Source: Pseudomonadota bacterium
Lineage (GTDB): Bacteria > Desulfobacterota > Desulfobacteria > Desulfobacterales > RPRI01
NCBI GenBank assembly: GCA_043825875.1
Contig: JBDRRF010000076.1
Location: forward strand, 160,001-224,000
DNA length: 64,000 bases
Reading direction: 5' to 3'
Below are positions 8,226 to 23,904 of this stretch, one piece after another. A model generated the notes under the pieces. That model saw only the letters and a program-made list of their open reading frames with translations, did not search any database and had not been told where the DNA came from. The translations under genes were made by a program, and so were the position numbers. Position 1 is the first letter of the stretch, and every line of letters starts with the position of its first letter.

Positions 8226-8257
8226 AAACTATTAGGAATATATCATAATACCATAAT

Positions 8258-8299: not shown

Positions 8300-8354
8300 A
8301 AAATTGCAAAAATCGAATTTATGGTAACTACTTAGGTTGTTAGGTTCACAGTTT

Positions 8355-8470: not shown

Positions 8471-8476
8471 CGCACC

Positions 8477-8521
8477 TTGAACCATGAACCATGGAACTGT
8501 GAACCTATAACCGTAAACTGC
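8477..8521. repeat. Degenerate 7-bp tandem repeats (TGAACCA-like) upstream of the four-helix-bundle remnant
   Basis: ttgaaccatgaaccatggaactgtgaacctataaccgtaaactg, with a complementary ggttcacag/ggttg tract near 8335-8352. Confidence 0.6.
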
Positions 8522-8523
8522 AT

Positions 8524-9180
8524 TTATATAATAACAAGTTTTTTTACCGCATCAACCACTTCTTCCGGATCATCCATAACCTGGAGTATATCAATATCGT
8601 CTTCTGAAATCTTATTCGATTCCAGCATCCTGGATTTAATCCATTTTTTGAGCCCACCCCAATAGTCTGATCCGACAAGAATAACCGGCAGCGGCCTTAT
8701 GCGGTGAGTTTGAATAAGCGTAACAGCTTCAAAAAGTTCATCTATCGTACCAAACCCACCAGGCATGATAATATATGCATAAGCATATTTTACAAACATT
8801 ACTTTTCGGATAAAAAAATATTTAAATTCAAGTTTTATATTAGAATATGGATTAGGCTCTTGTTCAAAAGGCAGGATTATATTAAGGCCTACGGATTTTC
8901 CACCTGCTTCGGCAGCTCCTTTATTGGCAGCTTCCATGACACCACCACCACCACCCGTAATTACAGAAAAATCGTTTTTCACAAAAAGGGACGCTATCAA
9001 TTCAGTTTTCTTATATACAGGATCATCCGGCTTGATTCTTGCCGATCCGAAAATACTTACAGCCGGTCCTAATTCATGAAGGGCCTCTATCCCTTCAACA
9101 AACTCGCCCATAATTCTAAAAAGCCGCCATGACTCCGATATAGACAATTCATCTATTAAATACTGTTTTTCCATTTTCAC
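8524..9180 (-). CDS. LOG family (TIGR00730) Rossmann-fold nucleotide phosphoribohydrolase
   Basis: SIFGSAR, ITGGGGGVMEAAN, FFIRKVMF, PGGFGTIDELFE. Confidence 0.92.
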   Translation of the reverse strand: MKMEKQYLIDELSISESWRLFRIMGEFVEGIEALHELGPAVSIFGSARIKPDDPVYKKTELIASLFVKNDFSVITGGGGGVMEAANKGAAEAGGKSVGLNIILPFEQEPNPYSNIKLEFKYFFIRKVMFVKYAYAYIIMPGGFGTIDELFEAVTLIQTHRIRPLPVILVGSDYWGGLKKWIKSRMLESNKISEDDIDILQVMDDPEEVVDAVKKLVII

Positions 9181-9298
9181 CCCTAAAATATCGTCTTTAA
9201 TAAAATAAAAGCAATCAAATATACTCTTTTCGAAATAATATTTTAGTATAAATTATATTAAACCGAAACTCAAAGAAATTAAAGTTAAACAGTATATT

Positions 9299-9363
9299 TT
9301 TATACTAATTATTTATTGTTATGTCAATTGAACATTGACAAATACGTTACATATGATTAGATT
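9299..9363. promoter_or_regulatory. Back-to-back divergent sigma70 promoters for the LOG gene (-) and ptsH-ptsI (+)
   Basis: Plus: TTGACA(9335-9340)-17bp-TAGATT. Minus: TTGACA(9327-9322)-17bp-TATAAA. Confidence 0.7.
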
Positions 9364-9452
9364 GAAGAAATTATGGCTTGCAAATTTAACAATATTAAAG
9401 CTATTATTTTTTTGTTTAAAACCACCTTTCTTATCATTTAACTAATAACTTA

Positions 9453-9734
9453 ATGAATAAAAATTCCAACGATCTTCTACAAAAAACAACTATAGTAAAC
9501 GAACTTGGACTACATGCAAGGGCGGCAGCTAAAATTGCACACCTTGCCGCAAACGCTAATAAAAAAATCTGGATTATAAACGAAAGTGAAAAAATAGACG
9601 CTTCAAGCATAATAGATATCCTTACACTTGGTTATGCCAAGGGTACCCGGATAACATTTGAGGCGGAAAACGAGACTGATATTGATATTTTAAATCATAT
9701 AATAATCCTGGTTGAAAATGGGTTTGGAGAATAA
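9453..9734 (+). CDS. ptsH: HPr phosphocarrier protein
   Basis: NELGLHARAAAK and DASSII motifs. Confidence 0.93.
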   Translation: MNKNSNDLLQKTTIVNELGLHARAAAKIAHLAANANKKIWIINESEKIDASSIIDILTLGYAKGTRITFEAENETDIDILNHIIILVENGFGE

Positions 9735-9741
9735 ACTCAAT

Positions 9742-11499
9742 ATGTCTGAAAAAGAAAATATAGAAGAAATAAGATTAAACGGAATTGAAGCTTCACCCGG
9801 AATCTGTATTGGCAAAGCATATCTTGTTGATAAAGAAGGTGTGGATGTAGTTGAAAAATATTTTATCGACAAGAAAAACCTGGATCATGAACTAAAGCGC
9901 TTTAAAACAGCGGTAAAACAGGCTGTTAATGACTTAAAACAAATAATCGAAAATATACCTAAGGAAGTGCGCAACCATACCGGTATCATTGAAACCCATG
10001 TTGCTCTTCTTAAAGACAGGAAACTCTATGATAAAACCATAGAAACTATAAAAAACGAAAGAGTTAATGCTGAATGGGCGCTTAAAAAGGTTGTAGCAGG
10101 CATCATGGTGATGTTCCAGAGCATAAATGATCCTTATCTTAAGGAACGGTCTAATGATATTTCTTATGTTTCAGATCGTATTGTGAAAAAACTGATGGGA
10201 TCTGAAGAAGTAAATATCGGCAAAATAGACAAGCGCGTCATTCTGGTTGCAAAAGATCTTTCACCTGCCGATACAAGCCAGATCCAGTTGGATAAAATTA
10301 TGGGTTTTATTACCGACCGTGGCGGTAAGACTTCTCACACAGGAATCATAGCCCGTACACTTGAAATACCTGCTGTTCTCGGCTTGGGTAGTGCTACAAA
10401 AATAATACATAATGATGATACGTTAATAATAGACGGATCAACAGGGGTTGTAATTGTAAATCCCTCGGAACAAACACTTAAGAAATATAAAGAGATTGAA
10501 ACCAGAGAAGAAGAGCATAAAGTACATTTATCGTTTGAAAGCCATTTTAAGGCAGAGACTATCGATGGGTTTTCTCTGCCGGTTATGGGGAACATAGAGC
10601 TTCCTGAAGAAGTTCCTTCAGTGCTGAACCATGGTGGTGATGGCATAGGGCTTTACAGAACCGAATTTCAATATCTTACACGAAGCGATTTTCCAAGCGA
10701 GGAAGAGCTTTTTGATAAGTACAAAAATGTTGTTGAGTCGATAGCTCCGAAACCGGTGACAATCCGTACGCTTGACATAAACGGGGATAAAGCGCTTGTA
10801 TCTTCCAATGGTTTTGACGAACCAAACCCTGCTCTTGGACTTCGTGCTATAAGATACTGTCTGGAACGGCCTGAAATTTTTATAACACAATTAAAAGCAA
10901 TATTAAGAGCCGCTGCTTTTGGAAATGTGAGAATCCTGTTTCCAATGATATCAGGCATTGATGAAATACGCGAAACAAAAAAATACCTTAATGAAGCTGC
11001 TGATCTGCTTGAAAAAGAAGGAAAGGCTTATAATAAAAACATCCCGTTCGGAATAATGATTGAAGTACCATCCACAGTTATAATGGCCGATGCTATGGCC
11101 GATGAAGCTGATTTTTTCAGTATTGGTACAAATGACCTTATCCAATATACTCTTGCGATAGACAGGGTTAATATGGGAGTCGCCCACCTTTATCAACCCT
11201 TTCACCCTGCTATTTTACGCATGATCAAGCACGTAACTGATGTTTGCAAAGCAAAAGGCATAAAGGTTTTTGTATGCGGGGAAATGGCAGGTGATCCTTT
11301 GAATGTGCCGGTTCTGCTCGGGTTGGGAATAGACGGACTGAGTATGAATCCCCAGTCAATTCCGGCAGTAAAAAATATGATACGATCACTAAAGATCGAG
11401 GATACAAAAATATTTATGAAAGAAATTCTTAATAAGACCACCACAAATGACGTAGCAAAACTTGTTGAAGCCTCTTTCGGAAACATTATTTCAAAATAG
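9742..11499 (+). CDS. ptsI: Phosphoenolpyruvate-protein phosphotransferase (PTS enzyme I)
   Basis: GGKTSHTGII, GIGLYRTEF, NPALGLRAIR, MIEVPS, SIGTNDLIQY, CGEMAG. ATG 9742 preferred over the TTG overlapping ptsH. Confidence 0.95.
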   Translation: MSEKENIEEIRLNGIEASPGICIGKAYLVDKEGVDVVEKYFIDKKNLDHELKRFKTAVKQAVNDLKQIIENIPKEVRNHTGIIETHVALLKDRKLYDKTIETIKNERVNAEWALKKVVAGIMVMFQSINDPYLKERSNDISYVSDRIVKKLMGSEEVNIGKIDKRVILVAKDLSPADTSQIQLDKIMGFITDRGGKTSHTGIIARTLEIPAVLGLGSATKIIHNDDTLIIDGSTGVVIVNPSEQTLKKYKEIETREEEHKVHLSFESHFKAETIDGFSLPVMGNIELPEEVPSVLNHGGDGIGLYRTEFQYLTRSDFPSEEELFDKYKNVVESIAPKPVTIRTLDINGDKALVSSNGFDEPNPALGLRAIRYCLERPEIFITQLKAILRAAAFGNVRILFPMISGIDEIRETKKYLNEAADLLEKEGKAYNKNIPFGIMIEVPSTVIMADAMADEADFFSIGTNDLIQYTLAIDRVNMGVAHLYQPFHPAILRMIKHVTDVCKAKGIKVFVCGEMAGDPLNVPVLLGLGIDGLSMNPQSIPAVKNMIRSLKIEDTKIFMKEILNKTTTNDVAKLVEASFGNIISK

Positions 11500-11600
11500 G
11501 ATAAAATCGGCACAATTTAAATTATTTGGAAATATACGGATTGTGACAAATCATAAAGCAGGAGCTGTAAAACCGGAATTTAAGCATTTGGAAGAAATCA

Positions 11601-12059
11601 TTGGAAAATACCCGCAATAAAAATATCTCAGAAAACAGAAAAGCACGGCATGACTATTTCATTGAAGATGAATATGAAGCAGGCATGGTTCTTCTTGGAA
11701 CCGAAGTTAAATCTCTAAGGCTTGGCCGGGCAAACCTCAAGGATTCATACGCAAAAATTAAAAACGGAGAGATTTTTGTTCATCAAATGCATATAGGCCC
11801 CTGCCCATTCGCTTATTATGCAAATCATGATCCGTTGAGAATAAGAAAACTTCTATTAAACAGGCAGGAGATAAACAAGCTTACAAACAAGGTAAACGAA
11901 AAAGGACACTCCCTGATTCCTTTAAGGTTATATTTCAAAAACGGAAAAGTAAAAATTTCAATCGCACTCGCCAAAGGCAAAAGACAATACGATAAGCGGG
12001 AAGCTATCAAAAAACGCGATGAAAAAAGGGAAATGGATAGAGATAGAAGCGAAAGATAG
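11601..12059 (+). CDS. smpB: SsrA-binding protein SmpB
   Basis: NRKARHDY, EAGMVLLGTEVKSLR, RKLLL, GKRQYDKRE. Confidence 0.97.
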   Translation: MENTRNKNISENRKARHDYFIEDEYEAGMVLLGTEVKSLRLGRANLKDSYAKIKNGEIFVHQMHIGPCPFAYYANHDPLRIRKLLLNRQEINKLTNKVNEKGHSLIPLRLYFKNGKVKISIALAKGKRQYDKREAIKKRDEKREMDRDRSER

Positions 12060-12221: not shown

Positions 12222-12297
12222 TCCCCAGTAGCTCAGCAGGTAGAGCAAGTGGCTGTTAACCACTTTGTCCGCGGTTCGAGTCCGTGCTGGGGAGCCA
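12222..12297 (+). tRNA. tRNA-Asn (GTT)
   Basis: 76-nt cloverleaf TCCCCAG...CTGGGGA-GCCA, anticodon loop ctGTTaa, GGTTCGAGTCC T-arm, encoded CCA. Confidence 0.97.
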
Positions 12298-12299
12298 AA
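12247..12299 (+). repeat. att core, left copy (3' part of tRNA-Asn)
   Basis: aagtggctgttaaccac...ggggagccaaa is identical to 20533-20585. Confidence 0.95.
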
Positions 12300-12305
12300 C
12301 AAATC

Positions 12306-12342
12306 AAGGGCTTAGATAAGTTTTAAATCTAAGCCTTTTTTT
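12306..12342 (+). terminator. Element-supplied terminator downstream of tRNA-Asn
   Basis: ggcttagat...atctaagcc stem followed by a T-run. Confidence 0.75.
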
Positions 12343-12363
12343 ATTCCCCACGTTATTCCCCAC
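12341..12363 (+). repeat. Putative integrase arm-type sites (2x TTATTCCCCAC)
   Basis: Tandem copies at 12341 and 12353. The same motif occurs at the other end (about 20348, 20385, 20397). Confidence 0.7.
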
Positions 12364-12450
12364 ATTTTAACTTGAAAATAAAAAAAGGCGGATGAAATCA
12401 CCCGCCCCCTTAAATTCTTTCAAAAGCCTTTCCGGATCTTTACGCTTATT

Positions 12451-12945
12451 TTATAATGCTTTTGGTGTATTCTTCCGCCGCATTCGAAAATCATCTAAAT
12501 TTAATACCGGTTCTTTTATTTTCAAATCCTCAATTTCAATCAACAAACTATCAAAGTCTTTTAGTAAAATTTGGCAAGCTGCAACGGGTGAAATGTCTTT
12601 TTCTGCTAAATCGTTCATTCTATTTATAATGCCATTAAGAAATTTATATTTATTTAAAACTTCCGCTGAAAAAAGCGGGCCATTTCGACGCATCTTTATG
12701 GCTGCAATTATATCTTTAAAAAACATGTTTGAGTATCTATCCCGCTCGGTTCGGATATTTTTTACATAATTACGATAGGTTTTTAACGTCGATTCTTTTA
12801 ATGGTTTCCCGTACTTGCTAACATGGTTTTTAAGCTTCTTTTTTATATTGATATATTTATTGATAACGTTCGTTCGGTAGTAATGTAATTTATGTTTAAG
12901 CTCAGCTTCAAGCTCATTTAAATCCATACTTTGATATTGTTTCAT
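12451..12945 (-). CDS. Hypothetical protein (element cargo)
   Basis: 164-aa ORF with ATG and a G-rich RBS. No recognised motif. Confidence 0.6.
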   Translation of the reverse strand: MKQYQSMDLNELEAELKHKLHYYRTNVINKYINIKKKLKNHVSKYGKPLKESTLKTYRNYVKNIRTERDRYSNMFFKDIIAAIKMRRNGPLFSAEVLNKYKFLNGIINRMNDLAEKDISPVAACQILLKDFDSLLIEIEDLKIKEPVLNLDDFRMRRKNTPKAL

Positions 12946-13157
12946 ATCTTACCCCCCCCTTAAAATAAAAAAGCCTGAAGGCGTCCCCGGTCCAGAGAAC
13001 CGCTCACAATATCACTATTGCAAGTACCTTCAGGCTTATTTTTAATATTTGTTTTCATGTCTCTGGCTTTGGGGTTTTTATATACTTATATACGTGTATA
13101 AGCATTGTCAAGCATTATTTATTGACTTTTAAGTTTTAAATCCATATAAAAAAAGTT

Positions 13158-13322
13158 ATGAAAGAACGAAAACCCTTCACAACAAGTTTAAACATATTGC
13201 TACTTAAAGATATTAAGAAGCTTGCAATTGACCATGACAAAGGTGTTAATGATCTTCTCGAAGAAGCTATCCGGGATATTCTAAAAAAGTATGAATTACA
13301 GTCTCAAAAACCCACCAAATAG
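13158..13322 (+). CDS. Small ribbon-helix-helix DNA-binding protein (54 aa, below ORF-track cutoff)
   Basis: MKERKPFTTSLNILLLKDIKKLAIDHDKGVNDLLEEAIRDILKKY fits the RHH pattern. TTGACT promoter element just upstream. Confidence 0.8.
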   Translation: MKERKPFTTSLNILLLKDIKKLAIDHDKGVNDLLEEAIRDILKKYELQSQKPTK

Positions 13323-13478
13323 CATAACCTATTAACTAATTGAAATTGCTTATAATATCGGCTTAATTAGAGTCGTTTACAGCGTACTTTATGAAAAAGA
13401 CATGGTTTAGCATGCCTCGTTTACGGCCGTTTTTCAGTTTTGAACCCGGATTGCTACGCTTTACCCCAAAAACAGCTT

Positions 13479-13525
13479 GGGTCCTTCCAGAGGTCTTTCG
13501 ATATTAGGGGTAATTCGCACCCGTC
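13479..13525 (+). other. Putative lambda-type cos site (cosQ + cosN), plus-strand copy
   Basis: GGGTCCT (13479-13485), 23 nt ending TTAGG, then the 12-mer GGTAATTCGCAC (13509-13520). Same geometry as lambda GGGTCCT-23nt(..TTACG)-GGGCGGCGACCT. Confidence 0.75.
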
Positions 13526-13579
13526 TATTTTTCTACATGTGATGATTTTTCATAAGTACCTAATACCATGACATAATCA

Positions 13580-13933
13580 TTAATCCCCAAATTTAAAAAA
13601 ACCCAGATCATCATCTGGATCATCATCAACGTCATCATCCGGATCATCATCAAAGCCAAATTTGTTTATATTTACAGATAGTTCAGGATAATCATAAACA
13701 AAATCTATACACGAATTATTTTGTTTTGGCTGTTTCCGGTTTAACAGAAAGCTTTTGCGGCCCCACTCCTGCAAAGCAACTTCAAGATCAATTTTCTTTA
13801 CATTTTTTATATTAACAATAGAGTGGCTTAACTTGCCGGATTTAATCGCGGCGGAGATCCTTTGCCGTGATACTCCTATCAGCCTGGCAAATTGGCTGTT
13901 GGTTATAAAGATTCTATCTTTTTTTCGTGGCAT
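13580..13933 (-). CDS. Small winged-HTH protein, terminase small subunit (Nu1)/Rpp-like
   Basis: TNSQFARLIGVSRQRISAAIKSGKL...IDLEVALQEW HTH plus an acidic tail. Starts immediately downstream of a cos-like site, as nu1 does. Confidence 0.6.
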   Translation of the reverse strand: MPRKKDRIFITNSQFARLIGVSRQRISAAIKSGKLSHSIVNIKNVKKIDLEVALQEWGRKSFLLNRKQPKQNNSCIDFVYDYPELSVNINKFGFDDDPDDDVDDDPDDDLGFFKFGD

Positions 13934-14011
13934 GGCATAACTTTTAAAAACTGCTGTTGTTTTTTCTTTAAAATTACAACCCGATTTTGTAACTTTGTGT
14001 CTAAAAAAAGG

Positions 14012-14058
14012 GCAGGGTGCGAATTACCCCTAATGGAAAAAAACTTTTAGGAGGACCC
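14012..14058 (-). other. Putative lambda-type cos site (cosQ + cosN), minus-strand copy
   Basis: Minus strand GGGTCCT (14058-14052), 23 nt ending TTAGG, the same 12-mer GGTAATTCGCAC (14028-14017), flanked symmetrically by AGG/CCT. Confidence 0.78.
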
Positions 14059-14071
14059 GCACCTTTTCCGG

Positions 14072-14818
14072 TTAACTTGCGCTTAAAGTTTCAAGGTATT
14101 GGTCATGCAATTCCGGTTGATCATGTATAACGGCACGAACAGCCTGTGCCATTGACATGTTATGTTCCGAAGAATACTGATTAACCGCTTCCATAAATGG
14201 CTCTGTCGTATGTTCTACCTTTGCCATAGGTTCACTCTTTGGCGCCTTGGCTTCATCTATCAGGTTGTTAACGTATGATTCATGCAGATCCGGGTTTTCT
14301 TCTGACACGGCACGAACAGCCTGTGCCATTGACAAGTTATGTTCTGAAGCATACTGATTAACAACGTCCATAAAAGATAGTTTGGTTTCTGTCTGGACTG
14401 AAGCTTTGCCTTCCTCTTTTTGTTTGAGACAGATATGATCCGTCCAAAGTTTCGGATATAGCTCTTGACATCTAAGCGTTGCTACGCCCTTTGATTGTTC
14501 TTGGTGTTCCCACTGATACCTTGAAACAGCCGCCTCAAAAGTCAAAGGGATTCCACCCGGGACACCTTGCTTGCCTGTATCCTTTACTTCTTCAGGCTCA
14601 ACGGCTGCATCTGTGCTTATTAAATGGTTAAAATAACTCTCACCGTTTGGGAATTGTTTCTGAAGCTCTTTATCGCGGAAAAACTCACGATCTGCACTTA
14701 TTTTTAGCAGTAATTCTGACCCTTTAATCTCGCTCGGTTCCCCATTTTCCAGAATATGCCGATAAAAGCTTAATGCTTCCATTGTGTTTTCTGCAGGACT
14801 CAAATTATTATCCATCAT
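14072..14818 (-). CDS. Hypothetical protein with three copies of a ~35-aa helical domain (capsid scaffold-like)
   Basis: FMDVVNQYASEHNLSMAQAVRAVSEENPDLHESY and FMEAVNQYSSEHNMSMAQAVRAVIHDQPELHDQY, plus a diverged third copy. Confidence 0.7.
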   Translation of the reverse strand: MMDNNLSPAENTMEALSFYRHILENGEPSEIKGSELLLKISADREFFRDKELQKQFPNGESYFNHLISTDAAVEPEEVKDTGKQGVPGGIPLTFEAAVSRYQWEHQEQSKGVATLRCQELYPKLWTDHICLKQKEEGKASVQTETKLSFMDVVNQYASEHNLSMAQAVRAVSEENPDLHESYVNNLIDEAKAPKSEPMAKVEHTTEPFMEAVNQYSSEHNMSMAQAVRAVIHDQPELHDQYLETLSAS

Positions 14819-14829
14819 AACCCCCTTTA

Positions 14830-15384
14830 TTAAATAAAATGTGAATGTTCGAATTTTCTAAAGACGTCATTCATTTTAAATCGCATGTTTGCATCAAGCC
14901 CGGAAAGTGCGTTGGTACTATCGGGCAAGCATTCATCCTGAATAATTTTTGCCATGGTTTTAAAAGCTGTTTGACGCTCTTTAATGAACTCGTTTATTTC
15001 ATCCACGAGCAAATCGCCATGAGGAAGAAGCCGGTCAGTCAACTTTTTTAAGATTTGCTGATTGATTTCAAAAATCTGCTGTTCGATTGGTTTTATCTGT
15101 GAGTCAATTTCTTCGGGAATGTCTTCATACTGCGGAAGTAATTCAAGGATACCGGTCAGCTTTTTCTGGATTTCGGGAACCTTGGCATCATTGCCATCGA
15201 CAAGAAGATCTTTTATTTGTTTTTTCAAGTCTTCTGCCTGCTTCTCATATCCAAGAATAGTGTCCTCAACTTTCTTCTTCCGCTCCATAATCTGCTCTTT
15301 GTTTTTGATAAGCACCTGTTTTTGTTCAAGTTCAGTTTTTACTGCTTCAATACATTGGTCCAGACAGCTGTTCTCTTTCTCCAT
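14830..15384 (-). CDS. Coiled-coil hypothetical protein
   Basis: Heptad-rich E/K/Q sequence, AGGAG RBS, tightly linked to the next gene. Confidence 0.75.
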   Translation of the reverse strand: MEKENSCLDQCIEAVKTELEQKQVLIKNKEQIMERKKKVEDTILGYEKQAEDLKKQIKDLLVDGNDAKVPEIQKKLTGILELLPQYEDIPEEIDSQIKPIEQQIFEINQQILKKLTDRLLPHGDLLVDEINEFIKERQTAFKTMAKIIQDECLPDSTNALSGLDANMRFKMNDVFRKFEHSHFI

Positions 15385-15484
15385 GGTCCAATTCTCCTAT
15401 TTTGTGTAATGGTTATTAAAATTTTGCCGTGTGAATGTGCCGACCGGAAAGGGTTTCGGTTGCCGGGCCTCACGGTTGCCGGAT

Positions 15485-15727
15485 TCACACGGGCAAACTG
15501 TTTAAAGCTGTATTTGCTAAACTTATTAAAAAATTAACGTGATTTATTTCTTCTTGGTAATCATGCTTTAGCTTTTCTCTTTTCTTAAATTCTTTATAAT
15601 CAAGATATCCGCTCGGCAATTCAGAAAGCTTTGCTCTGGCATCTGCAATCCGCTTGTTATAATTTTCAAGATCAAGAACTGCTTCTTGTGTTAATTGTTC
15701 AGAAGTATAAAAAATAGTATTCGACAT
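15485..15727 (-). CDS. Small coiled-coil hypothetical protein
   Basis: MSNTIFYTSEQL... helical ORF in the element's main operon. Confidence 0.6.
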   Translation of the reverse strand: MSNTIFYTSEQLTQEAVLDLENYNKRIADARAKLSELPSGYLDYKEFKKREKLKHDYQEEINHVNFLISLANTALNSLPV

Positions 15728-15789
15728 TTTTACTTTTATCTTTTTTGTTTTTAAAAAAACACACAAGTGTGAATCTGGAAGATTCGCAC

Positions 15790-15957
15790 CCTTCTTAAGA
15801 CCTTCTTAAAAACATACTTATAATACCTTCTTAGGGGGGAATTTTTTCCCATGTTTTGGAAAAAATCTCCCATGTTCAGGGAAAATTTTCCCGTCATTAC
15901 GGGGAATTTTTTCCCATGCTCTTTTTTGATCTTATTTATTACAGGGAATTTTTTCCC
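15790..15957. repeat. Iteron array / probable replication origin of the element
   Basis: Five GGGAATTTTTTCCC-like quasi-palindromes at about 15837, 15858, 15879, 15902 and 15944 (21-23 bp period, one 42-bp gap), plus three CCTTCTTA repeats, directly downstream of the rep gene. Confidence 0.75.
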
Positions 15958-15968
15958 ATAAAAAAGCA

Positions 15969-16685
15969 TCATACCGCCACCCGATCTCTTAACTTTTGGT
16001 TTAAATAACCCGGCTTCCAATGCTTTTTTGGAATAAGAAAAACCCGCCAAACTCTTTCGCCTTCATAGGTATCATATGGTTCAATTAAAAAGTTCTTTTG
16101 AAGGCTTTTTATAGCATCCCCCACACTTCGCCTGTTGATTCCGGCAAATTCAGCTAACCGCCCAATTTCAGCACTACACAACTCCCAGCGTCGTTTTGCA
16201 AAACGCTCTTTGAACTCAAGGTTATCATATTCAACGTTCTCATCTTCTTCGGCATCATAATATGAGAAATATCTCATTACTGGATAAAGTGCTTTTGCTG
16301 TTGGTTTGAGTTCTGACCATGTGCCGCTTCTAATAATCCCATTATAAAAGAAGAACGACCGGCCATTTTCACCCTTTTGAGGAAATTTCAATTTATAGTA
16401 CTTACCCCGTTTTCCGTGCCGGGTCAGAAAATACTCCCATGTAAACCCAGGAAAACCGTCAAGGTCTTTAATACCTTGCCGTACGGTTTTAATATCTAAG
16501 CGCGATAGTGCAGCAATTGTTTCTTGACCCGGAAATGCTTTACCGTGTTCATCACAATGACAAGCAATTACAGGAAGAACCGCCTTTGCTGCTGTTGATA
16601 TATTTGACCAGTTCATATTCTCGTTCCATCTTTTATCGAAACGAAAAAACAGCGTCCAATCAATATCAGCCGAAAAATGATACAT
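15969..16685 (-). CDS. Replication initiator-like protein with tandem winged-HTH domains
   Basis: AFPGQETIAALSRLDIKTVRQGIKDL (HTH_36-like) and internal duplication WSNISTAAKAVLPVI / WSELKPTAKALYPVM. ATG 16685 follows a GAGGG RBS; iterons lie downstream. Confidence 0.75.
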   Translation of the reverse strand: MYHFSADIDWTLFFRFDKRWNENMNWSNISTAAKAVLPVIACHCDEHGKAFPGQETIAALSRLDIKTVRQGIKDLDGFPGFTWEYFLTRHGKRGKYYKLKFPQKGENGRSFFFYNGIIRSGTWSELKPTAKALYPVMRYFSYYDAEEDENVEYDNLEFKERFAKRRWELCSAEIGRLAEFAGINRRSVGDAIKSLQKNFLIEPYDTYEGERVWRVFLIPKKHWKPGYLNQKLRDRVAV

Positions 16686-16787
16686 TATTATCGCCCTCAC
16701 AGCGCAACCGCCCCACAAGAAGTAATCGGAAGAGAAACGAGGTGTGAGGTTCCTTGCCTATCGGCGCGCGCCGCCTATCTCTTCCGA
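16686..16787 (-). ncRNA. Structured leader RNA upstream of rep (possibly int-alpA motif family), copy 2
   Basis: 10-bp outer stem TCGGAAGAGA/TCTCTTCCGA enclosing TAGGC..GCCGATA and a hairpin with loop CCTCAC, which is complementary to downstream GTGGGG and GTGAGG (the RBS). Confidence 0.65.
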
Positions 16788-16928
16788 AATTCAAAATCTG
16801 CAACTGGTTTTTGTTTTGGTTATTAAATGCGTCAAGTGAACGGTTTGAGCAACCCTGGGACATAGTATCAGGCTGACACATGCCGGAAGCTGAAAACCCG
16901 CTTCTTAGAACCTCTGGTGGCTTCATGC

Positions 16929-17126
16929 TTATGCACTCAACGACTTTTCAGGATCAATCCGGTGTGAGTCTATAAAAGACTCAATATCTTTAAGCCGGTA
17001 TCTGACAGAACGCCCGATTTTAATAAATGGAAGTCCACGGCTCATAAAACGATCATTTCGTAAAGTGAATACGCTTTTACCGATAATTTTTGCTGCTTCT
17101 TTTTCGTTGATAATTCCTAAGCTCAT
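16929..17126 (-). CDS. AlpA/excisionase-like HTH protein
   Basis: INEKEAAKIIGKSVFTLRNDR..GLPFIKIGRSVRYRL.DIE is a typical MerR-like HTH_17. AAGGAG RBS. Confidence 0.9.
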   Translation of the reverse strand: MSLGIINEKEAAKIIGKSVFTLRNDRFMSRGLPFIKIGRSVRYRLKDIESFIDSHRIDPEKSLSA

Positions 17127-17323
17127 ATTTACTCTCCTTTTTTCAATGTACTTCTTTTAAAAAACAAAAAAGCCACAAGATTATTTATCCTGTAGCTATA
17201 GAGTACTACTATTTTTTTCTAAGTCAATTATTTAAAATGATTATAGGAAGTTAGCTGATATTTTAAACTTTAGAATATCAGCTTTTCTTTTGATAAATAA
17301 GAGGGTTTTACAGTTATTAAAGT

Positions 17324-18370
17324 TTAAACCCTTTTCAGGTATAATGGTATATATATTAACCGGAGAGTGTTTTCGCTGAGGTATAAGTTGAACTTTTCAA
17401 TATGAACGGTATCTCTTGTTATGCTTTTAAGCAAAAAGGGGTTTCTTTTGATCTTTTGTAAAAAAGCATAAAGATCTATTGCAAAACCGCTATTGCTTTT
17501 AATCTTATAAGGTTTACTTCTCTCTTTTAATTTTATTTCACCTTTATTATTTGTAATTGCTTCATTTGCAAGAAAGTATTCTATAATTTTAAAAAGAATT
17601 TGATCTCTGGGATTAATTCTTATTTCTCGTTCTTTTTCTTTTTGCTTTATTTTTGCAATGCTTTTCTTTTTGCTTTCCAGGTATTTCTTTTCGGCTGCTG
17701 GCCGTAATTCATCACTTTCACTCATAAACCGATGTATTAAAAATGCGTCCATTTTTGCTCTATTAATTGTTGCTGCTCGTTTTGAGTACGTTCGGGCATC
17801 TTCAAGATACTTCATAGAAGAACTATCTTCTTCAAATCTCATACCTTCCACTAAAAAACTTTTTACAGAGAATATTGCCATTTCAATAGCAAACAGATTA
17901 AACAGTGCCTCCGAATCGATTTTTTCCCTCGCGCCTGGACTTACTCCATTAGTGCAAAGTGCCTCTCGCCATATTACCTCTTCTGGAATGCCACATTCGC
18001 CTTTCATCCCTGAATAGTTGTTACGATATCTTTTAAAAAGTGCTGCTGAAGCATTTAAACTATCCGTGTAAATAGAATCTGCTCCCCGTTTGTAAATAGC
18101 GCGTAAATCTTCAAGAAATTTTGCAGGAAAACCGATAAGGCTTTCAATAACCTTTGAGGAAGGCCAAAGAGAATTCCCTAAGCATGGCACGTTATCTTCA
18201 AGGTGAAAACAAACAATAAAATTTGTGCGGCATTCTCTTATAATTAAAAGGCATTCTTGGAAGTATTTACTTTCAATTTCCAAAGATTCCAACCGCTGAA
18301 TATCTCCAAATATCGGGCATCGTTCATTATAAAATTCTGTTTTATAAGGATTGTTTTCAAGTTTATTCAT
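17324..18370 (-). CDS. Hypothetical protein between integrase/TA and alpA
   Basis: 348-aa ORF with no recognised motif. Confidence 0.75.
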   Translation of the reverse strand: MNKLENNPYKTEFYNERCPIFGDIQRLESLEIESKYFQECLLIIRECRTNFIVCFHLEDNVPCLGNSLWPSSKVIESLIGFPAKFLEDLRAIYKRGADSIYTDSLNASAALFKRYRNNYSGMKGECGIPEEVIWREALCTNGVSPGAREKIDSEALFNLFAIEMAIFSVKSFLVEGMRFEEDSSSMKYLEDARTYSKRAATINRAKMDAFLIHRFMSESDELRPAAEKKYLESKKKSIAKIKQKEKEREIRINPRDQILFKIIEYFLANEAITNNKGEIKLKERSKPYKIKSNSGFAIDLYAFLQKIKRNPFLLKSITRDTVHIEKFNLYLSENTLRLIYIPLYLKRV

Positions 18371-18459
18371 TGCTTGTCCATTTGCAATGCGTCCTGAAAT
18401 TTATTGAGGGAAGCTGGCAGGACATTTCCAGCTTATCGGCCCGTCGGCCTATCCCTCAA
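18371..18459 (-). ncRNA. Structured leader RNA (possibly int-alpA motif family), copy 1
   Basis: Outer stem TTGAGGGA/TCCCTCAA enclosing TAGGCC..GGCCGATA and an AGCTGG/CCAGCT hairpin with loop TGTCCTG, which is complementary to downstream CAGGAC and GGACA just before the ATG. Confidence 0.65.
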
Positions 18460-18471
18460 AAGTATTTGTAA

Positions 18472-18822
18472 TCACATAAGCACCCGGTAATCAATCTTGA
18501 GTGCATCGCCAAATAACCGGGCATTTTTCCGGCCTATAACCCTTTTCCCGTTTTCCATTTCAGAAATGTGACGCTGAGGGATTCCGGTCAATTCGGAAAG
18601 TTGCCCTTGCGTCAAACCCTCTTTATGCCTTGCGCCTGATAGGGCGACACCGGGAGAATTGTCTTTAAATTCAGGAAAGGCATCTCTCCAGGGAATAGTA
18701 TCCGATGCATCCTTATAGCCGATAGACTTCATCAACTTGACGGCCTTATCTTTCTCCGACACCGGCCCGGAGAACGTTAATACAATGCTTTTAGTACGGC
18801 GCTTTTTCGTGTGTTCCAGCAT
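18472..18822 (-). CDS. XRE-family HTH antitoxin (HigA-like)
   Basis: ARHKEGLTQGQLSELTGIPQRHISEMENGKR. Downstream of and overlapping a RelE-like toxin. Confidence 0.88.
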   Translation of the reverse strand: MLEHTKKRRTKSIVLTFSGPVSEKDKAVKLMKSIGYKDASDTIPWRDAFPEFKDNSPGVALSGARHKEGLTQGQLSELTGIPQRHISEMENGKRVIGRKNARLFGDALKIDYRVLM

Positions 18823-19072
18823 AAACAACCTCGATCAATTGTATTTCATTATCAATAATCTGCCAAACCGCAACATAGGTCGGCTGACCCTTTTTTAAAT
18901 GGCAATGGTGCCTCTGATCTTTCAGTTTGCCATAATTTGGCCAGTTGCCCCTTATCGGCCCTTTGAGTTCAATCTCTCTCAACAGGGCAAAAAGAGATTT
19001 CTTCGCCCTGACAGGCAACCGGTCAATCATCTTGTTTATCCGCCTGGGAATTACCACCTGCCATTTAATCAT
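18791..19072 (-). CDS. RelE/HigB-superfamily toxin
   Basis: 93 aa, basic, WPNYGKL...HHCHLKKG.PTYV..W...EVVYAGTHEKAPY. Toxin-first order. Confidence 0.8.
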   Translation of the reverse strand: MIKWQVVIPRRINKMIDRLPVRAKKSLFALLREIELKGPIRGNWPNYGKLKDQRHHCHLKKGQPTYVAVWQIIDNEIQLIEVVYAGTHEKAPY

Positions 19073-19162
19073 GATAATAATATACCTTTTTTTAGTATCA
19101 AATCAAGATTTATTTTTTATCGTTTACATTTGCCGCTTCTTATCGGCCCGTCGGCCTATCCC

Positions 19163-20332
19163 TCAAACTTCGTTTGCTGCTTTAACCTTTGATGTTTTGT
19201 TCGCTGGCTTGTTTATTATATCCCCTGCAAGCGCTGAGGCTCTTTTCAATGCGTCATCTCGCAAGTGTGCATACCTTTGAGTCATTAGCGGGCTCTTATG
19301 AGTCAGAAGCCTTTGCAAGGTGTATAAGTCAACTTGCCCAGAGCTTGCCAACACAGACGCATAAACATGACGGAGCCCATGCATCGGCCTAAATCCAACA
19401 GGAAGTCCAGCCTTGTTTCGGATACGGTCAACGCTTTTTCTATTCAAAGTAGTTAAATGAGATCCTTCCCTTTGCCCTGGGAAAATCCATCCATTACTTC
19501 CTGCTTTTTCTATTTTTTCTAATACAGCTAACGCAGAGCCGTTTAAAGGGATACTCTGATCTTGCCCGCCCTTTGGGTTACGGATTGTAATAAAACCCCG
19601 CTCAAAGTCAATGTCCTGCCATTTTAACCGGAATATTTCGCCCCGTCTCATGCCTGTATAAAGTGCAAGTTTCATAATACTTGCCGTTGTCTGATCTTCA
19701 TCTCTCTCTAAAACAGCCAGTAAAGATTTAATCTGATATTCTGTTAGATCTTCTGTTGTTTGGTTGTTCAATCTTGGGATTTCAATTTTAAAAGTAATAG
19801 GAGAAGTCTTGCCCTTTTTCACGCCATAATTGAGAGTCCGGCGAAGGATTTCAAGCACCCTTGCTGCTGTTGTCTTATGTCCCTTTTTTAATAACCCCAA
19901 ACGGAGCCGATCAACATCAAGCGGAAGAAGTTGACCCGGTTCTTTATCGCCAAGCACCTGCCTTATGTGAACATCGAATTTTCTTTTCTCCGCATTTATA
20001 ATTTTATTGTATGGATTATTTTCACAGTATGAATCCCAAAGTTTCGCAATAGTCCATCGGGTATTTACAGCTTCCTTCCTTGCCTTTTCAACTTCTCTTT
20101 TTTCTGTATTTGAAGTTTGATTCCCTTCAATTTTTTGTGCCCGGATACGCGCTGCCTTTGCAGGAGTCATATCATCTTGGAATTGACGCCCCACTTTTTC
20201 ATCAATTGCTTTCCCTGCTTTCCGATAACGGATATAATAAATCCTTTCCGGCCGGCCTGTAACTATTCCCTTGCTTTCAATATAATATACTCCAGGATAT
20301 TTTGTCTTGATTCGTAAAAATGATTTTGGCAT
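19163..20332 (-). CDS. int: Tyrosine recombinase / site-specific integrase
   Basis: LYTGMRRGE, K in NPKGG, HGLRH, LLTHKSPLMTQRYAH catalytic motifs. Adjacent to the att repeat. Confidence 0.95.
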   Translation of the reverse strand: MPKSFLRIKTKYPGVYYIESKGIVTGRPERIYYIRYRKAGKAIDEKVGRQFQDDMTPAKAARIRAQKIEGNQTSNTEKREVEKARKEAVNTRWTIAKLWDSYCENNPYNKIINAEKRKFDVHIRQVLGDKEPGQLLPLDVDRLRLGLLKKGHKTTAARVLEILRRTLNYGVKKGKTSPITFKIEIPRLNNQTTEDLTEYQIKSLLAVLERDEDQTTASIMKLALYTGMRRGEIFRLKWQDIDFERGFITIRNPKGGQDQSIPLNGSALAVLEKIEKAGSNGWIFPGQREGSHLTTLNRKSVDRIRNKAGLPVGFRPMHGLRHVYASVLASSGQVDLYTLQRLLTHKSPLMTQRYAHLRDDALKRASALAGDIINKPANKTSKVKAANEV

Positions 20333-20532
20333 TTTAAACCTCTTTTTGTTCCCCACACTACACAATAATTATAACCACTGCTTTTTATTCCCCACACTAT
20401 TCCCCACACATAAATTAAATATACAGGTAATAAAAAGTAAGTCAATAAAAATAATACTCAATAATAATCTATTATTTCAAGGTATTTAATGACATAAATA
20501 AAAAGGAAGGTAAATTAAGGTAAATAGCTTAA

Positions 20533-20585
20533 AAGTGGCTGTTAACCACTTTGTCCGCGGTTCGAGTCCGTGCTGGGGAGCCAAA
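20533..20585 (+). repeat. att core, right copy (duplicated 3' part of tRNA-Asn)
   Basis: Identical to 12247-12299. Lacks the tRNA 5' acceptor strand and D-arm. Confidence 0.95.
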
Positions 20586-20781: not shown

Positions 20782-21468
20782 TTATACTTCTTCAGCAGAT
20801 GCGCTTTCAGAACATAATCCGCGAGATGCTTTTTCCCAATCTTCTACTTCTTCGCCTTCTTCGATTTCTTCCCACCCGGTAATCATGGCCTTTATATGTG
20901 CAAAAATTGAGTGGCCGGTTGTAGTCATATAAACATGCACAACGATAAACGCGAGGATGGAGAATGCTCCGGCCAAATGAATCAGCGCCACAACGTTTAA
21001 AGAAAGAAAATCAAGTCCCCAACTCTCCCAGGAATTATATGTCCAGTAGAAAATTCCCGTGAACATCTGGATGGGCAAAAGCATTGCTGCCAGAAAGAGA
21101 TAGGTCAGTCGTTGTAATGGATTGTGTTTGGCGCCTTTTCGTTTCGGCACCGGGTGCGATTCGCCTTTAAAAATACCAAAACCATAGTAATGTACGACCT
21201 CCAACAGCTTTTTTGTAGTTGGAATATACTGTTTCCATTCACCGGTCGTAAATATCCAGAACACGAAAAACGCAAAAGCAATCAGCCAGGTAATGCCAAG
21301 GAAATTATGCACCTCAACAGCCCGTTCAAAACCAATTAGCGAGTAAACACCGTGGATTTCAAAACCTGTTATAAGCAGCAAAAAGATCAGAAGCATTTGC
21401 AGCCAGTGCCAGAAACGCTCGTAGCGGGTGTACAGATAGGTGGTTATAAGTTTTATTGAATGCATCAA
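20782..21468 (-). CDS. Cytochrome b/b6-domain membrane subunit (PhsC/FdnI-like)
   Basis: ERFWHW, HN, KHNPLQRLTY, H..GA, HVYM. Four TM segments. Confidence 0.9.
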   Translation of the reverse strand: MMHSIKLITTYLYTRYERFWHWLQMLLIFLLLITGFEIHGVYSLIGFERAVEVHNFLGITWLIAFAFFVFWIFTTGEWKQYIPTTKKLLEVVHYYGFGIFKGESHPVPKRKGAKHNPLQRLTYLFLAAMLLPIQMFTGIFYWTYNSWESWGLDFLSLNVVALIHLAGAFSILAFIVVHVYMTTTGHSIFAHIKAMITGWEEIEEGEEVEDWEKASRGLCSESASAEEV

Positions 21469-23100
21469 TTACTCCTCCTTCTTACGACCATTGGTAAAGA
21501 TCCTGCCCAGAGCGTGGAGAACAATACCACCAAATGAACATAGAACAATGGCCCATCCGGCAAAGTCGATAATATTGACTTTGTCGCGTCCCGGCATATA
21601 AAACCCAGCCAGATTGGCCAGACGGCTGTCAGGCCGTGTGTGACACTGACTGCATTTCAGCGCTTCTTCCCTGGGAGAAACCATATGGGTGCTTGGAAAA
21701 ACATAGGCAGTTTCTACAAAGTCAATTTTGCCGCTAAATGGCAGATCCAGATATTTTGCGCCCCGCTGAATGGAATCCTGCCAGTCAAAAGTGGTCCAGT
21801 ATCCATGTTCTCCTGATAAAAGCGGCGTTGTCATTGTTTTGTTTACCGTGTCATAGGGCTGTTTGCCCGAATGAATATTAAAGGGGAAAATACGTGCGTT
21901 TTTATCATTACGATTTCCATTCGGCCAGGCCAGTTTGACTATCTTGCTCGGATCAATCATATCTTTGGCTGTGACCCCTTTGATGGAACCGTTGAACCAC
22001 AGATATTTTGGGATCACATTTTTTTCCCATTTTGTATCTCCTTTGGTCGTTTGATATACGGGCTTTCCGAAAGGACCGTATACATCATAAGGCTTTCCGT
22101 CTTTTTTCTTTCCTGCCTTGGACCAGTCCCACCATCTTTGAACAGGTAAAACTTTCGCAATAACAGGAACATGACAGGCCTGACATGCAACCTTGTCCGT
22201 ATGGTCATTCATTTTACTGCTTAACGCATGAGGCTTGTCACTGTGACAGGATTCACACATAATTTTGGGTTCAAGATCGTGCTCAAGAAGGCTGTGACGC
22301 GTTTCAGAAGCCGGTGTTCCGTAAATCCTTCCTGCAACATGGTGCGCAATGGTTGTATGGCATCTGGTGCACTCAAAATCCTGGCCATCATATCCCATAT
22401 GAACATCGAGTTCTTTGTTGGGATTAATTAAAGAAGGATCCAGATCACCATGCTTAACACCATCTCCACCTCCACCGGAAAAATGACAGGTACCGCAGTT
22501 TTTGCGCGTTGGGCGTCCGATACTCTGGACAACTTCGTGGATTTCAGCCTGAGCGTCTTTGGCAAGAGCTTTTTCTTCCGGATCTTTTGACTCAGCAAAA
22601 TACTTATAATCTCCAAAAACCTCTTCCCAGTTGATTTTTTTCCGGCCATGACATTTCAGACAATCGATTTCTGTTTTCTTGCCTTCCTCATTCCATCCAA
22701 TGTGACATTCGTTGCAGTGATGATCATTCATTGCATTGGCTGAAATACAAAAATTGTTTACCGAATATCCGGCCTTGCCCATTTTATTATCCTTTGGTGA
22801 ATTGGGATCAAGCCACGTCCAGTGAAGCGTTTTTTTCAACTGGTTGGCCGCTTCTGTATGGCATGAAAGACAGGCTTTACTGATTTCGGGTCCTGATGTA
22901 AAATTTTGATTCAATGCTTTAAACTGTGAATGATCAGCTGTGGTAGTATTCTTTGCTTCTTTAACTACCTGCCGGGCAAGTTCCAAACCGGGTGCATCCT
23001 GATCCTGATTTGCAAATAAAAGTGTAGACGCAAAAAACAGGAAACATATCCACAGGAAGAATAATACATAACTTTTATGTGTTAATTTAAACCTCATCAT
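21469..23100 (-). CDS. Octaheme c-type cytochrome, tetrathionate reductase (OTR) family
   Basis: Eight CxxCH motifs, HWTW, NNFC, CHF.GGGGDGVKHGDLD, signal peptide, C-terminal TM anchor. Confidence 0.92.
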   Translation of the reverse strand: MMRFKLTHKSYVLFFLWICFLFFASTLLFANQDQDAPGLELARQVVKEAKNTTTADHSQFKALNQNFTSGPEISKACLSCHTEAANQLKKTLHWTWLDPNSPKDNKMGKAGYSVNNFCISANAMNDHHCNECHIGWNEEGKKTEIDCLKCHGRKKINWEEVFGDYKYFAESKDPEEKALAKDAQAEIHEVVQSIGRPTRKNCGTCHFSGGGGDGVKHGDLDPSLINPNKELDVHMGYDGQDFECTRCHTTIAHHVAGRIYGTPASETRHSLLEHDLEPKIMCESCHSDKPHALSSKMNDHTDKVACQACHVPVIAKVLPVQRWWDWSKAGKKKDGKPYDVYGPFGKPVYQTTKGDTKWEKNVIPKYLWFNGSIKGVTAKDMIDPSKIVKLAWPNGNRNDKNARIFPFNIHSGKQPYDTVNKTMTTPLLSGEHGYWTTFDWQDSIQRGAKYLDLPFSGKIDFVETAYVFPSTHMVSPREEALKCSQCHTRPDSRLANLAGFYMPGRDKVNIIDFAGWAIVLCSFGGIVLHALGRIFTNGRKKEE

Positions 23101-23198
23101 AGTATATCCATTTTTTTATTGCTGCCAAGGCACAAGAGACACAAATAAAGAAGTAGAAAATATGTCTTTGCGCCTTTCGACATTCATATCAAATAAAT

Positions 23199-23543
23199 CT
23201 ACTTGCATTTTGCCGGGGATGGAGAATCTGCCGCATGTTCATATAAATACGAATAAATGTCGTTCAAATCTTTTTCTGACAATTTGCTCCATTCTTCACT
23301 GCATTTAAACTGATCAAAATCTTTTTTTTCGAAAGTCCGCTTCCATTGGGCCTGTGTTTTTGAATCAGGACTCAATAGCGGTTTGGGAGAATCAATTTCA
23401 CCACGCTTGCTGCACGCTTTATAAACATTACGATACGTGTATTTACCTTTTCGCGAATTGCCGTCTTCACCGGCAAAACCAATACCGATAGAAGTAAATA
23501 CAAAACCAATTACCATTAAAGTTAATACTACTTTTTTTAACAT
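23199..23543 (-). CDS. Small exported cytochrome-c-like protein (no intact CxxCH)
   Basis: Signal peptide, GNSRKGKY..R, LSP.SKTQAQW.R.F, HAADSPSPAKC. Confidence 0.65.
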   Translation of the reverse strand: MLKKVVLTLMVIGFVFTSIGIGFAGEDGNSRKGKYTYRNVYKACSKRGEIDSPKPLLSPDSKTQAQWKRTFEKKDFDQFKCSEEWSKLSEKDLNDIYSYLYEHAADSPSPAKCK

Positions 23544-23589
23544 GTTACCTCCTTATATTTATTAAAAATTATATTGCTTAGGATTTTAA

Positions 23590-23904
23590 TTAAAAAACCA
23601 CATATCGATCCATGTTAGCCACCATTTCAGCATTTTTTGCCTGGGTGGCAAAGTCTTTGAAACCAACGCCAGGAACCTCATCTTCACGCCCGTGCAACCC
23701 ATTAGCTCTGAAACTGACATCACATATTGCCAGTTTTGCTTTTCCCACCAGTTTCTTAAAATCAGGTTTAAGCGTCAGAAGCACACCCTTTCCTGTAAAA
23801 AATATATGAACATCTTTTCCTTTCAAATGGGCGGCCCGTGTCAGGTTGACAACATAATCAAGATGCTTATCAGTATTTACAAGAATACCCAGCGTATCAG
23901 CCAT
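23590..23904 (-). CDS. DsrE-family sulfur relay protein
   Basis: VHIFFTGKGVLL, ICDVS with conserved Cys, DRYVVF end. Confidence 0.8.
   Translation of the reverse strand: MADTLGILVNTDKHLDYVVNLTRAAHLKGKDVHIFFTGKGVLLTLKPDFKKLVGKAKLAICDVSFRANGLHGREDEVPGVGFKDFATQAKNAEMVANMDRYVVF

Follow-up and report, generated by a model that had tools for sequence, protein, structure and literature searches.

The 64,000-nucleotide stretch of DNA analysed here (the window; positions 160,001 to 224,000 of contig JBDRRF010000076.1, assembly GCA_043825875.1) comes from a bacterium of the Desulfobacterales. Inserted at a tRNA-Asn gene, it carries an island that is very probably a helper-dependent phage satellite of the cos type, similar to the phage-inducible chromosomal islands (PICIs). 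The gene content suggests, with a probability of roughly 0.6, that this satellite steals the terminase of a lambda-like phage and engages the capsid protein of that helper by means of a doubled scaffold tail. Integration at tRNA-Asn, two lambda-type cos sites and the lack of any recognisable gene for a capsid, portal, large terminase subunit (TerL) or tail together make helper dependence likely. The features on which this interpretation is built are, in window coordinates:

12222..12297, plus strand: tRNA-Asn(GTT), the integration target (ARAGORN, Rfam)
12247..12299, plus strand: attL core, 53 bp, overlapping the 3' part of tRNA-Asn (repeat search)
13479..13521, plus strand: cos2, consisting of a cosQ heptamer, a 21-nt spacer and a cosN-like 15-mer, facing the terS-like gene from its 3' side
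13580..13933, minus strand: protein of 117 aa resembling the small terminase subunit (TerS) or Rpp, with a TerS-type helix-turn-helix (HTH) at aa 7-67 (phrog_57, E 4.7e-6) and an acidic C-terminal tail
14016..14058, minus strand: cos1, consisting of a cosQ heptamer, a 21-nt spacer and the same cosN-like 15-mer, directly upstream of the terS-like gene
14072..14818, minus strand: protein of 248 aa (ORF248) with scaffold-tail repeats, copies at aa ~144-184 and ~203-244 and a degenerate third at aa ~91-134
14830..15384, minus strand: alpha-helical hairpin or coiled coil of 184 aa (ORF184; structure model)
15790..15959, no strand: likely origin, with iterons and AT-rich 8-mers directly downstream of rep
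15969..16718, minus strand: replication initiator gene rep, winged HTH (wHTH) type, likely start ATG 16685 (HTH_36, E 1.4e-13; phrog_1032, E 5e-10)
20533..20585, plus strand: attR core, 53 bp (repeat search)

An earlier note on this DNA had described an 8,286-bp unit between perfect 53-bp att repeats at tRNA-Asn, and both coordinates and identity were confirmed: the direct repeats at 12247-12299 and 20533-20585 are 100% identical with a spacing of 8,286 bp, and the core has two occurrences in the whole assembly, both at the island ends. Between the repeats lie 12 credible open reading frames (ORFs), 11 on the minus strand and one, coding for a ribbon-helix-helix (RHH) protein, on the plus strand. 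Gene order and co-orientation are as the earlier note had them, although it omitted a 164-aa ORF (12451-12945). ORF86 and ORF99 were rejected as likely spurious; they match no family and overlap with rep and the iterons. Fourteen ORFs were scanned in Pfam, PHROGs and NCBIfam. As the earlier note had stated for capsid, portal, TerL, tail and relaxase genes, no capsid, portal, TerL, tail or lysis family and no relaxase or coupling-protein family was found among them; oriT was not searched for.

The cos sites link the island to phage packaging. In each arm the heptamer is identical to one that precedes the left end of the lambda record by 23 nt, and we take it to be the lambda cosQ. The two sites form an inverted pair around the terS-like gene with an exact 20-bp core that none of 200 shuffles reached (maximum 18). 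When the real genome is cut into 524 tiles of the same size, 28 of them also contain inverted matches of at least 20 bp; this length is thus not unique, and the identification of the sites rests on comparison with external phages. The pattern of heptamer and 15-mer was found in 25 viral loci of IMG/VR and 31 genome loci, and a co-oriented GpA-type TerL gene starts no more than 3 kb downstream in 48 of these 56. The pattern therefore represents the packaging-start site of lambda-like phages, and, judged from sequence, both island sites are of this type, as the earlier note's cos and inverted cos had implied. The 15-mer has two copies in the host assembly, both in the island. A cosQ-cosN-cosB layout is described in PMC6092414. 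A relaxed regular expression for cos matches unrelated loci by chance, and sites in other islands were counted only between the replication gene and the HTH or TerS gene.

The same cos motif occurs without a TerL match at eight loci (L042, L016, L092, L093, L094, L103, L107 and L114). In L042, cos is immediately preceded by a tRNA-Thr and a rep-like ORF; integrase or alpA-like matches are seen in L092, L094 and L103. These eight loci are candidate satellites of other proteobacteria. L042, a metagenome match, was rejected as a relative, being a different island.

The proposed contact with the helper capsid is based on ORF248. Its repeat, 81% identical at the DNA level, corresponds to a motif of ~40 aa that forms the C-terminus of a prophage protease/scaffold protein. 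The earlier note had listed a repeat-domain ORF, and the repeats are indeed present, but it did not recognise their identity as scaffold tails. Searched with phmmer, 1.84 billion proteins yielded 29 matches other than the query itself, 27 of which were scanned while two long repetitive proteins were set aside. Ten of the 27 are head-maturation proteases by PHROG, belonging to two families and matched via their C-terminal part; the rest are mostly small unannotated proteins built largely of repeats. A profile of the repeat matches 21 of 400 genomes of the host class, and 20 of its 24 non-self matches were fetched together with their surroundings, four on short contigs being left out. Thirteen of these regions are prophage head modules in which an S49 protease is followed by a phrog_1005 capsid gene, mostly accompanied by a lambda-type portal and GpA TerL. 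In all 13 a single copy of the motif sits at the very end of the protease/scaffold, and the prophage tail most similar to the ORF248 repeats is that of L072 (30%). The other seven lack TerL, portal and capsid genes, and six of them are located at tRNA genes (Arg, Phe, Ala), where two copies of the motif lie beside a coiled-coil ORF of 198-245 aa; L068, L069 and L081 show a clear second copy. The seventh, L084, is a 4-kb contig with one copy. Pairs of att sites delimit 9.1 kb in L081, 10.0 kb in L083 and 22 kb in L068, the last including apparent insertion sequences, and a cosQ-type site follows the replication gene in four of the six tail-bearing islands.

Conversely, a profile built from 12 prophage tails retrieves ORF248 with E 1.5e-20 when run against the six-frame translation of the host (48,045 segments), the next segment having E 0.2; this reciprocal test is partly circular, because the tails had been found with a profile that included the query. 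The repeat alignment is too variable for a pattern scan. The repeat has no sequence relative in the PDB, fold searches returned a best Z of 4.1 and no Foldseek match under E 0.2, and for ORF248 as a whole a search among proteins of near length found itself only and viral contigs and GenBank phages gave no match. In the AlphaFold2 model each copy folds into three helices with a pLDDT (predicted local distance difference test score) of about 92-96, joined by a flexible, low-confidence linker.

A precedent for such a protein is CpmB, which shares the C-terminal motif of the 80alpha scaffold and competes for its site on the capsid; the CpmB dimer straddles capsomers and thereby forces the formation of small heads (PMC5644958). 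In the light of this precedent, ORF248 likely acts as a mimic of an internal scaffold, divalent within a single chain, and its repeats make it a candidate capsid-hijack gene that points to the lineage of the helper. It is reasonably likely that the repeats bind the helper capsid protein, on its inner face and at the site used by the scaffold tail. The further step, in which the two tails of one chain would span adjacent capsomers in the manner of the CpmB dimer and redirect the helper to small heads that exclude its own genome, is plausible at slightly less than even odds, and it would perhaps be aided by the 184-aa coiled coil. A less likely alternative is a cos satellite whose tandem tails leave head size unchanged and instead titrate capsid protein or aid assembly, concatemers being packaged into normal heads. 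EcCICFT073 uses cos and Rpp and may need no scaffold mimic. Moreover, the linker between the copies may not constrain the angle between capsomers, and many proteases hold 2-4 copies of the motif, so that doubling is not limited to stand-alone proteins. However, the copy number splits the 20 regions into prophages with one (13/13) and tRNA islands with two (6/6, three of them weak), and divalent binding of the CpmB type is a known route to small heads.

The fetched regions also bear on the possibility that the island is a decayed lambda-like prophage in which cos, a TerS stub and a scaffold tail were left after deletions. The truncated TerS and the prophage origin of the tail would fit, as would the presence of genes from prophage packaging regions in related islands (a small HTH gene, a Zn-ribbon ORF and, for L068, genes for a cement protein and a tape measure). 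Yet the arrangements differ: in the prophages the tail comes after cos, terS, terL and portal, whereas in the island it comes before cos. Decay also sits poorly with perfect att cores, open reading frames, a second, inverted cos and a duplicated tail, with a diverged relative that keeps the same region, and with six other islands that share the doubled tail in four different tRNA and replication settings. We consider such decay improbable. The earlier note had itself raised a collinear decayed full prophage as a competing case, and the related prophages are not collinear with the island.

Two of the tail-bearing islands deserve description in their own right. L081 is a 9.1-kb island at tRNA-Arg with an intact S49 protease followed by two tails (9104-10330) and no capsid gene; it is possibly an intermediate between a prophage scaffold and a stand-alone mimic. 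In L068 (G108:C1, tRNA-Arg), the stretch 6086-11770 codes for a complete TerS of the Nu1 type, for a tail protein with two copies of the motif, and for proteins resembling a cement protein and, with 953 aa, a tape measure. L068 has no capsid, portal or TerL gene, and a tape measure of its own would be unusual in a satellite. Matches to the c4-2 RNA above the gathering score are found in L068 (4237-4317) and L069 (2681-2750).

The replication module sets the island apart from most of its tail-bearing relatives. No primase or helicase family was found among the 14 scanned ORFs, and the island carries an initiator of the HTH_36 type instead. The earlier note had called this gene a tandem-wHTH rep; the HTH_36 and phrog_1032 matches agree with a wHTH initiator, but the two halves align with E 7.5e-4 at a probability of 25%, which lends weak support to a tandem arrangement. 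The iterons reported in the same note were recovered at 15837, 15879, 15902 and 15944. Three of these 16-bp units are exact and one has 3 mismatches, and the exact 16-mer has three copies in the 4.77-Mb assembly, all of them here. Three 8-mers (15790, 15801, 15826) lie within AT-rich DNA, and the AT-rich part of the origin is 80% identical over 55 bp to the DNA right behind the rep homologue of L009. Four of 300 class genomes contain a rep homologue, which in three cases lies in a tRNA-linked island; viral contigs gave no match. Primase-type genes are present in five of the related islands that were scanned or read. Since these relatives are mostly of the primase type and the island studied here has a wHTH initiator, hijack and replication modules appear to mix.

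L007, L008 and L009 are islands at tRNA-Ala, tRNA-Lys and tRNA-Phe, respectively, with the same wHTH rep, the copy in L008 being apparently frameshifted. L010 and L011 are two near-identical rep-like ORFs of ~300 aa that lie in the same genome (G037) and match the second half of rep.

Another explanation would make the island an integrative element, moved by conjugation or immobile, that carries cos and scaffold parts as passengers. Consistent with it, the same rep, RHH gene and 93-aa ORF recur in tRNA islands without tail motif or clear cos (L007-L009, L146), the helper was not found, and ORF348 and ORF164 are unannotated. Against it stand the lack of a relaxase or coupling-protein family in the 14 ORFs and the clustering of two intact, equally spaced cos sites with a scaffold tail and, between the sites, a TerS-type domain; conjugation does not account for such a cluster. 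We regard this explanation as very improbable. A helper-dependent satellite with an iteron-type initiator, as proposed in the earlier note, is the best fit: its cos sites match those of phages, the prophages are not collinear with it, and no relaxase was found in the 14 scanned ORFs.

The 117-aa protein encoded between the cos sites may modify terminase specificity. Its resemblance to TerS is confined to the N-terminal DNA-binding domain (aa 7-67), so the earlier designation as TerS-like holds for this domain and for nothing beyond it. Weak phmmer matches (E 0.002-0.03) connect it to 4 of 39 TerS candidates behind the same cosN, and no BLAST match to lambda Nu1 was obtained. The acidic tail is encoded by a 24-bp tandem duplication (13580-13660) and ends in aromatic residues; in this it presumably resembles the interaction tails of the single-stranded DNA-binding protein (SSB) type. 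Rpp has the same layout of an isolated TerS-type wHTH (PMC6739421), and an Rpp-like role for the protein is about as likely as not.

These elements can be assembled into a working model. Upon induction of a helper, the AlpA-like protein would turn the operon on, Int would excise the 8,286-bp circle and Rep would copy it from the iterons, steps that we predict with high confidence. The helper TerL would then quite probably cut at cosN, and either cos alone would define unit-length genomes; as cos1 and cos2 face each other, they would package in opposite directions. The 117-aa protein, slightly better than evenly supported in this function, would pair its TerS-type domain with the helper TerS and thus favour the satellite cosB. 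The tail repeats of ORF248 would act on the head as set out above.

For ORF184, the nearest named Atlas cluster is Psu (0.90, 179 of 256 features). The fold matches generic helical hairpins, with a best Z of 12.0 and a root-mean-square deviation of 2.9 over 118 aligned residues, and Foldseek points to PspA/ESCRT-III at E>0.02, neither Psu nor Sid being among the listed folds. Proteins of near length returned the query itself only. ORF184, modelled as a long helical hairpin, is possibly a Psu/Sid-like capsid factor, which we offer as a lead only.

Several observations weigh against the interpretation of the island as a cos satellite with a doubled scaffold tail. With respect to the helper, the same cos was found in none of 400 other genomes of the host class, and named carriers of the identical cosN are mostly alphaproteobacterial. 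Phages with identical cosN gave no match to the tail motif, the tail-bearing prophages have other cosN sequences, and no GpA TerL, lambda portal or phrog_1005-type capsid was found in the host assembly. The true helper is thus unseen, and this copy of the island may be stranded without it. With respect to the tails, L070, L080 and L083 have a weak second copy, L081 keeps a full S49 domain ahead of its two copies, and the profile that found the islands favours two-copy proteins and included the query. L007-L009, which share rep, lack the tail motif and have no clear cos either. The 117-aa protein has no relative in 300 genomes of the phylum, finds only itself among proteins of near length and has no PDB sequence match to Rpp or Nu1; moreover, RppC has C-terminal dimerising helices (PMC6739421) in place of an acidic tail. 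ORF184 does not align with P4 Psu or Sid, and its best E against seven coiled-coil ORFs of related islands is 0.04. Signs of activity are likewise missing in sequencing run X1, possibly the source data: read depth is 26.5 over the element versus 27.0-27.6 in the flanks, and attP or attB joints are not listed among its contigs, with which rare excision is still compatible.

The read sets were covered as contigs. Runs X2 and X3, apparently one data set filed twice, contain pieces of a relative of ~88-92% identity that extend from rep to ORF164, none of them over ORF348. X4 holds other integrase and toxin-antitoxin (TA) pieces only. In the same genus, the tRNA-Val island L146 shares RHH, the 93-aa ORF and short stretches only, and is without cos or tail.

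The remaining features of the island concern integration, regulation and cargo:

12338..12364, no strand: repeat common to 12338-12364, 20331-20357 and 20382-20408, copies 70-93% identical
12451..12945, minus strand: ORF of 164 aa, no family over cut-off, covered by the ~88-90% relative in runs X2/X3
13158..13322, plus strand: RHH regulator, 54 aa (phrog_3180, Arc-like, E 1.5e-6)
15422..15497, minus strand: long intergenic hairpin (z -2.9; 2 of 200 shuffles equally stable)
15485..15766, minus strand: helical ORF of 93 aa, likely start ATG 15724 (ORF list)
16716..16790, minus strand: third copy of the int-alpA-like hairpin motif, between alpA and rep (z 0.47, not more stable than shuffles)
16929..17126, minus strand: AlpA/excisionase-like HTH regulator, 65 aa (HTH_17, 28.1 bits, cut-off 27; phrog_66, E 3.5e-5)
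17324..18370, minus strand: cargo ORF of 348 aa, matching no family in the three databases
18392..18459, minus strand: int-alpA RNA motif (RF02996; 39.3 bits, gathering score 35.8; z -2.7)
18472..18828, minus strand: HTH_3 antitoxin-like gene (Pfam, NCBIfam)
18791..19072, minus strand: toxin-like gene of the TA pair (similarity to a plasmid protein)
19139..19167, no strand: perfect 29-bp direct repeat flanking the TA pair, partner at 18432-18460 (repeat search)
19163..20365, minus strand: tyrosine integrase, likely start ATG 20332 (PF00589, E 4.7e-30; phrog_1, E 2.5e-55)

The three repeats at 12338, 20331 and 20382 are likely arm-type sites of the integrase, and a sequence resembling the first also follows tRNA-Asn in two same-genus genomes. 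A terminator-like hairpin (12382-12411) is listed with the 164-aa ORF. Homologues of the RHH protein (45% and 48%) adjoin the integrases of islands L009 and L146, and L146 has, behind its replication genes, a counterpart of the 93-aa ORF that is 54% identical over 57 aa. For the alpA gene of the earlier note there is an HTH_17 match above the cut-off at the expected position, but PF05930, the AlpA family, was not matched at E<=0.1. The toxin-like product is 51% identical to a plasmid protein that lies beside an HTH gene and is annotated as 'cytotoxic translational repressor of toxin-antitoxin stability system'. The 29-bp repeat corresponds to the first 29 bp of the int-alpA RNA, its second copy being located directly behind int, and this duplication around the TA pair suggests that the TA cassette entered at the int-alpA motif. 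The hairpin motif formed by the first stem of this RNA is found on the minus strand at 19160, 18453 and 16779, that is, after int, after the TA pair and in the gap between alpA and rep; these are all its copies in the assembly. They possibly represent a shared termination or antitermination signal. ORF348 has a homologue in none of 250 other class genomes and is not covered in runs X2/X3, and together with the TA pair it is probably replaceable cargo. A promoter scan of the island remained at chance level (26 versus 22.8), and PADLOC returned generic HTH and coiled-coil matches only.

The island is single-copy in the 4.77-Mb assembly (118 contigs, 99.8% complete by markers), with a GC content of 38% versus 39%. 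The host is likely a sulfate reducer, because its genome contains dsrD. In 12 loci of the same genus that were compared in the search for an empty attB, smpB and tRNA-Asn are unlinked. Two tRNA-Asn loci of this genus carry an attL-like stub, but have neither the element nor the same right flank; thus, no clean empty site is available. These stubs of ~65 bp follow tRNA-Asn in L148 (4200-4317) and L149 (5132-5246), no integrase or second att lies within 15 kb of them, and they are likely scars at an integration hotspot. To the right of the island, at 20782-23904, ORFs read by inspection as cytochrome b, a multiheme cytochrome c and small redox proteins. The 42 spacers in two CRISPR arrays of the host matched none of the fetched loci.

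A broader reading, somewhat less likely than not, is that Desulfobacteria carry a family of cos satellites, not described before, in which a single-chain, divalent copy of the helper scaffold tail and a Psu/Sid-like coiled coil reshape the heads of lambda-like helpers, combined with interchangeable replication modules, and that this Gram-negative counterpart of CpmB evolved independently. No report of satellites in Desulfobacterota or sulfate reducers was found in the literature searched, subscription papers being mostly outside its coverage. Within the same limits, no tandem scaffold tail in a Gram-negative satellite is evident in the accessible parts of the scaffold-mimic literature on the Staphylococcus aureus pathogenicity islands (SaPIs), P4, the PICI-like elements (PLEs) and capsid-forming PICIs (cf-PICIs). 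If correct, our interpretation would add a new route of capsid hijacking in Gram-negatives, for which reviews list external scaffolds (Sid, TcaP) and capsid genes of the satellite itself, and would identify the ~40-aa motif as the tail that binds the capsid in a whole group of lambda-like phages. It would also imply that replication and hijack modules of satellites mix freely. The tail profile would then offer a marker for satellites in sulfate reducers.

How the island relates to known satellites can be judged from their components. Among the five core components of PICIs (PMC10085698), it has an integrase with att sites and, for packaging, two cos sites, the TerS match being confined to the DNA-binding domain; tail, holin, portal and head-tail genes are lacking, as in PICIs. 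The regulator is represented by the HTH_17 match and the upstream int-alpA RNA, without a PF05930 match, and for capsid morphogenesis there is no capsid-family match, the ORF248 tails being a candidate of another kind. The primase-replicase module is absent, and the island is therefore filed as PICI-like and not as a PICI. With P4-like satellites it has in common the integration at a tRNA gene, the predicted packaging by cos and a long helical ORF that the Atlas places nearest to Psu among named clusters, but it has no family match to the alpha primase-helicase, Ash, Delta, Sid or Psu, and its cos is lambda-type. The PLE of Vibrio cholerae also uses a replication initiation protein and not a primase (PMC10085698); however, no other PLE marker was recognised in the island, and PLE parasitises the lytic phage ICP1. 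A left half composed of int, regulator and replication genes recalls cf-PICIs, which differ in having capsid, portal, TerL and head-tail genes. Like SaPI1 with CpmB (PMC5644958), the island encodes a protein with the C-terminal motif of a helper scaffold and presents two tails per unit. In CpmB this is achieved by a 72-aa dimer with a helix-and-hook tail, whereas here a three-helix motif of ~40 aa is repeated in one chain; the island further differs from SaPI1 in its Gram-negative host and its predicted cos helper with an S49 protease-scaffold, and there is no positive sequence or fold match between the two. The closest likeness is to cos PICIs of the EcCICFT073 type, which have the same order of int, cargo, alpA-like, replication and packaging genes, no structural genes, two cos sites with lambda-type cosQ and cosN, and a small TerS-type wHTH protein (PMC6092414, PMC6739421). 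In contrast to EcCICFT073, the island has a wHTH initiator with iterons in place of a primase-replicase, a doubled scaffold tail, a likely sulfate-reducing host and a 117-aa protein with an acidic C-terminal tail and no detectable similarity to Rpp. Taken together, the island appears to work like a cos PICI, and to be neither P4-like nor a cf-PICI.

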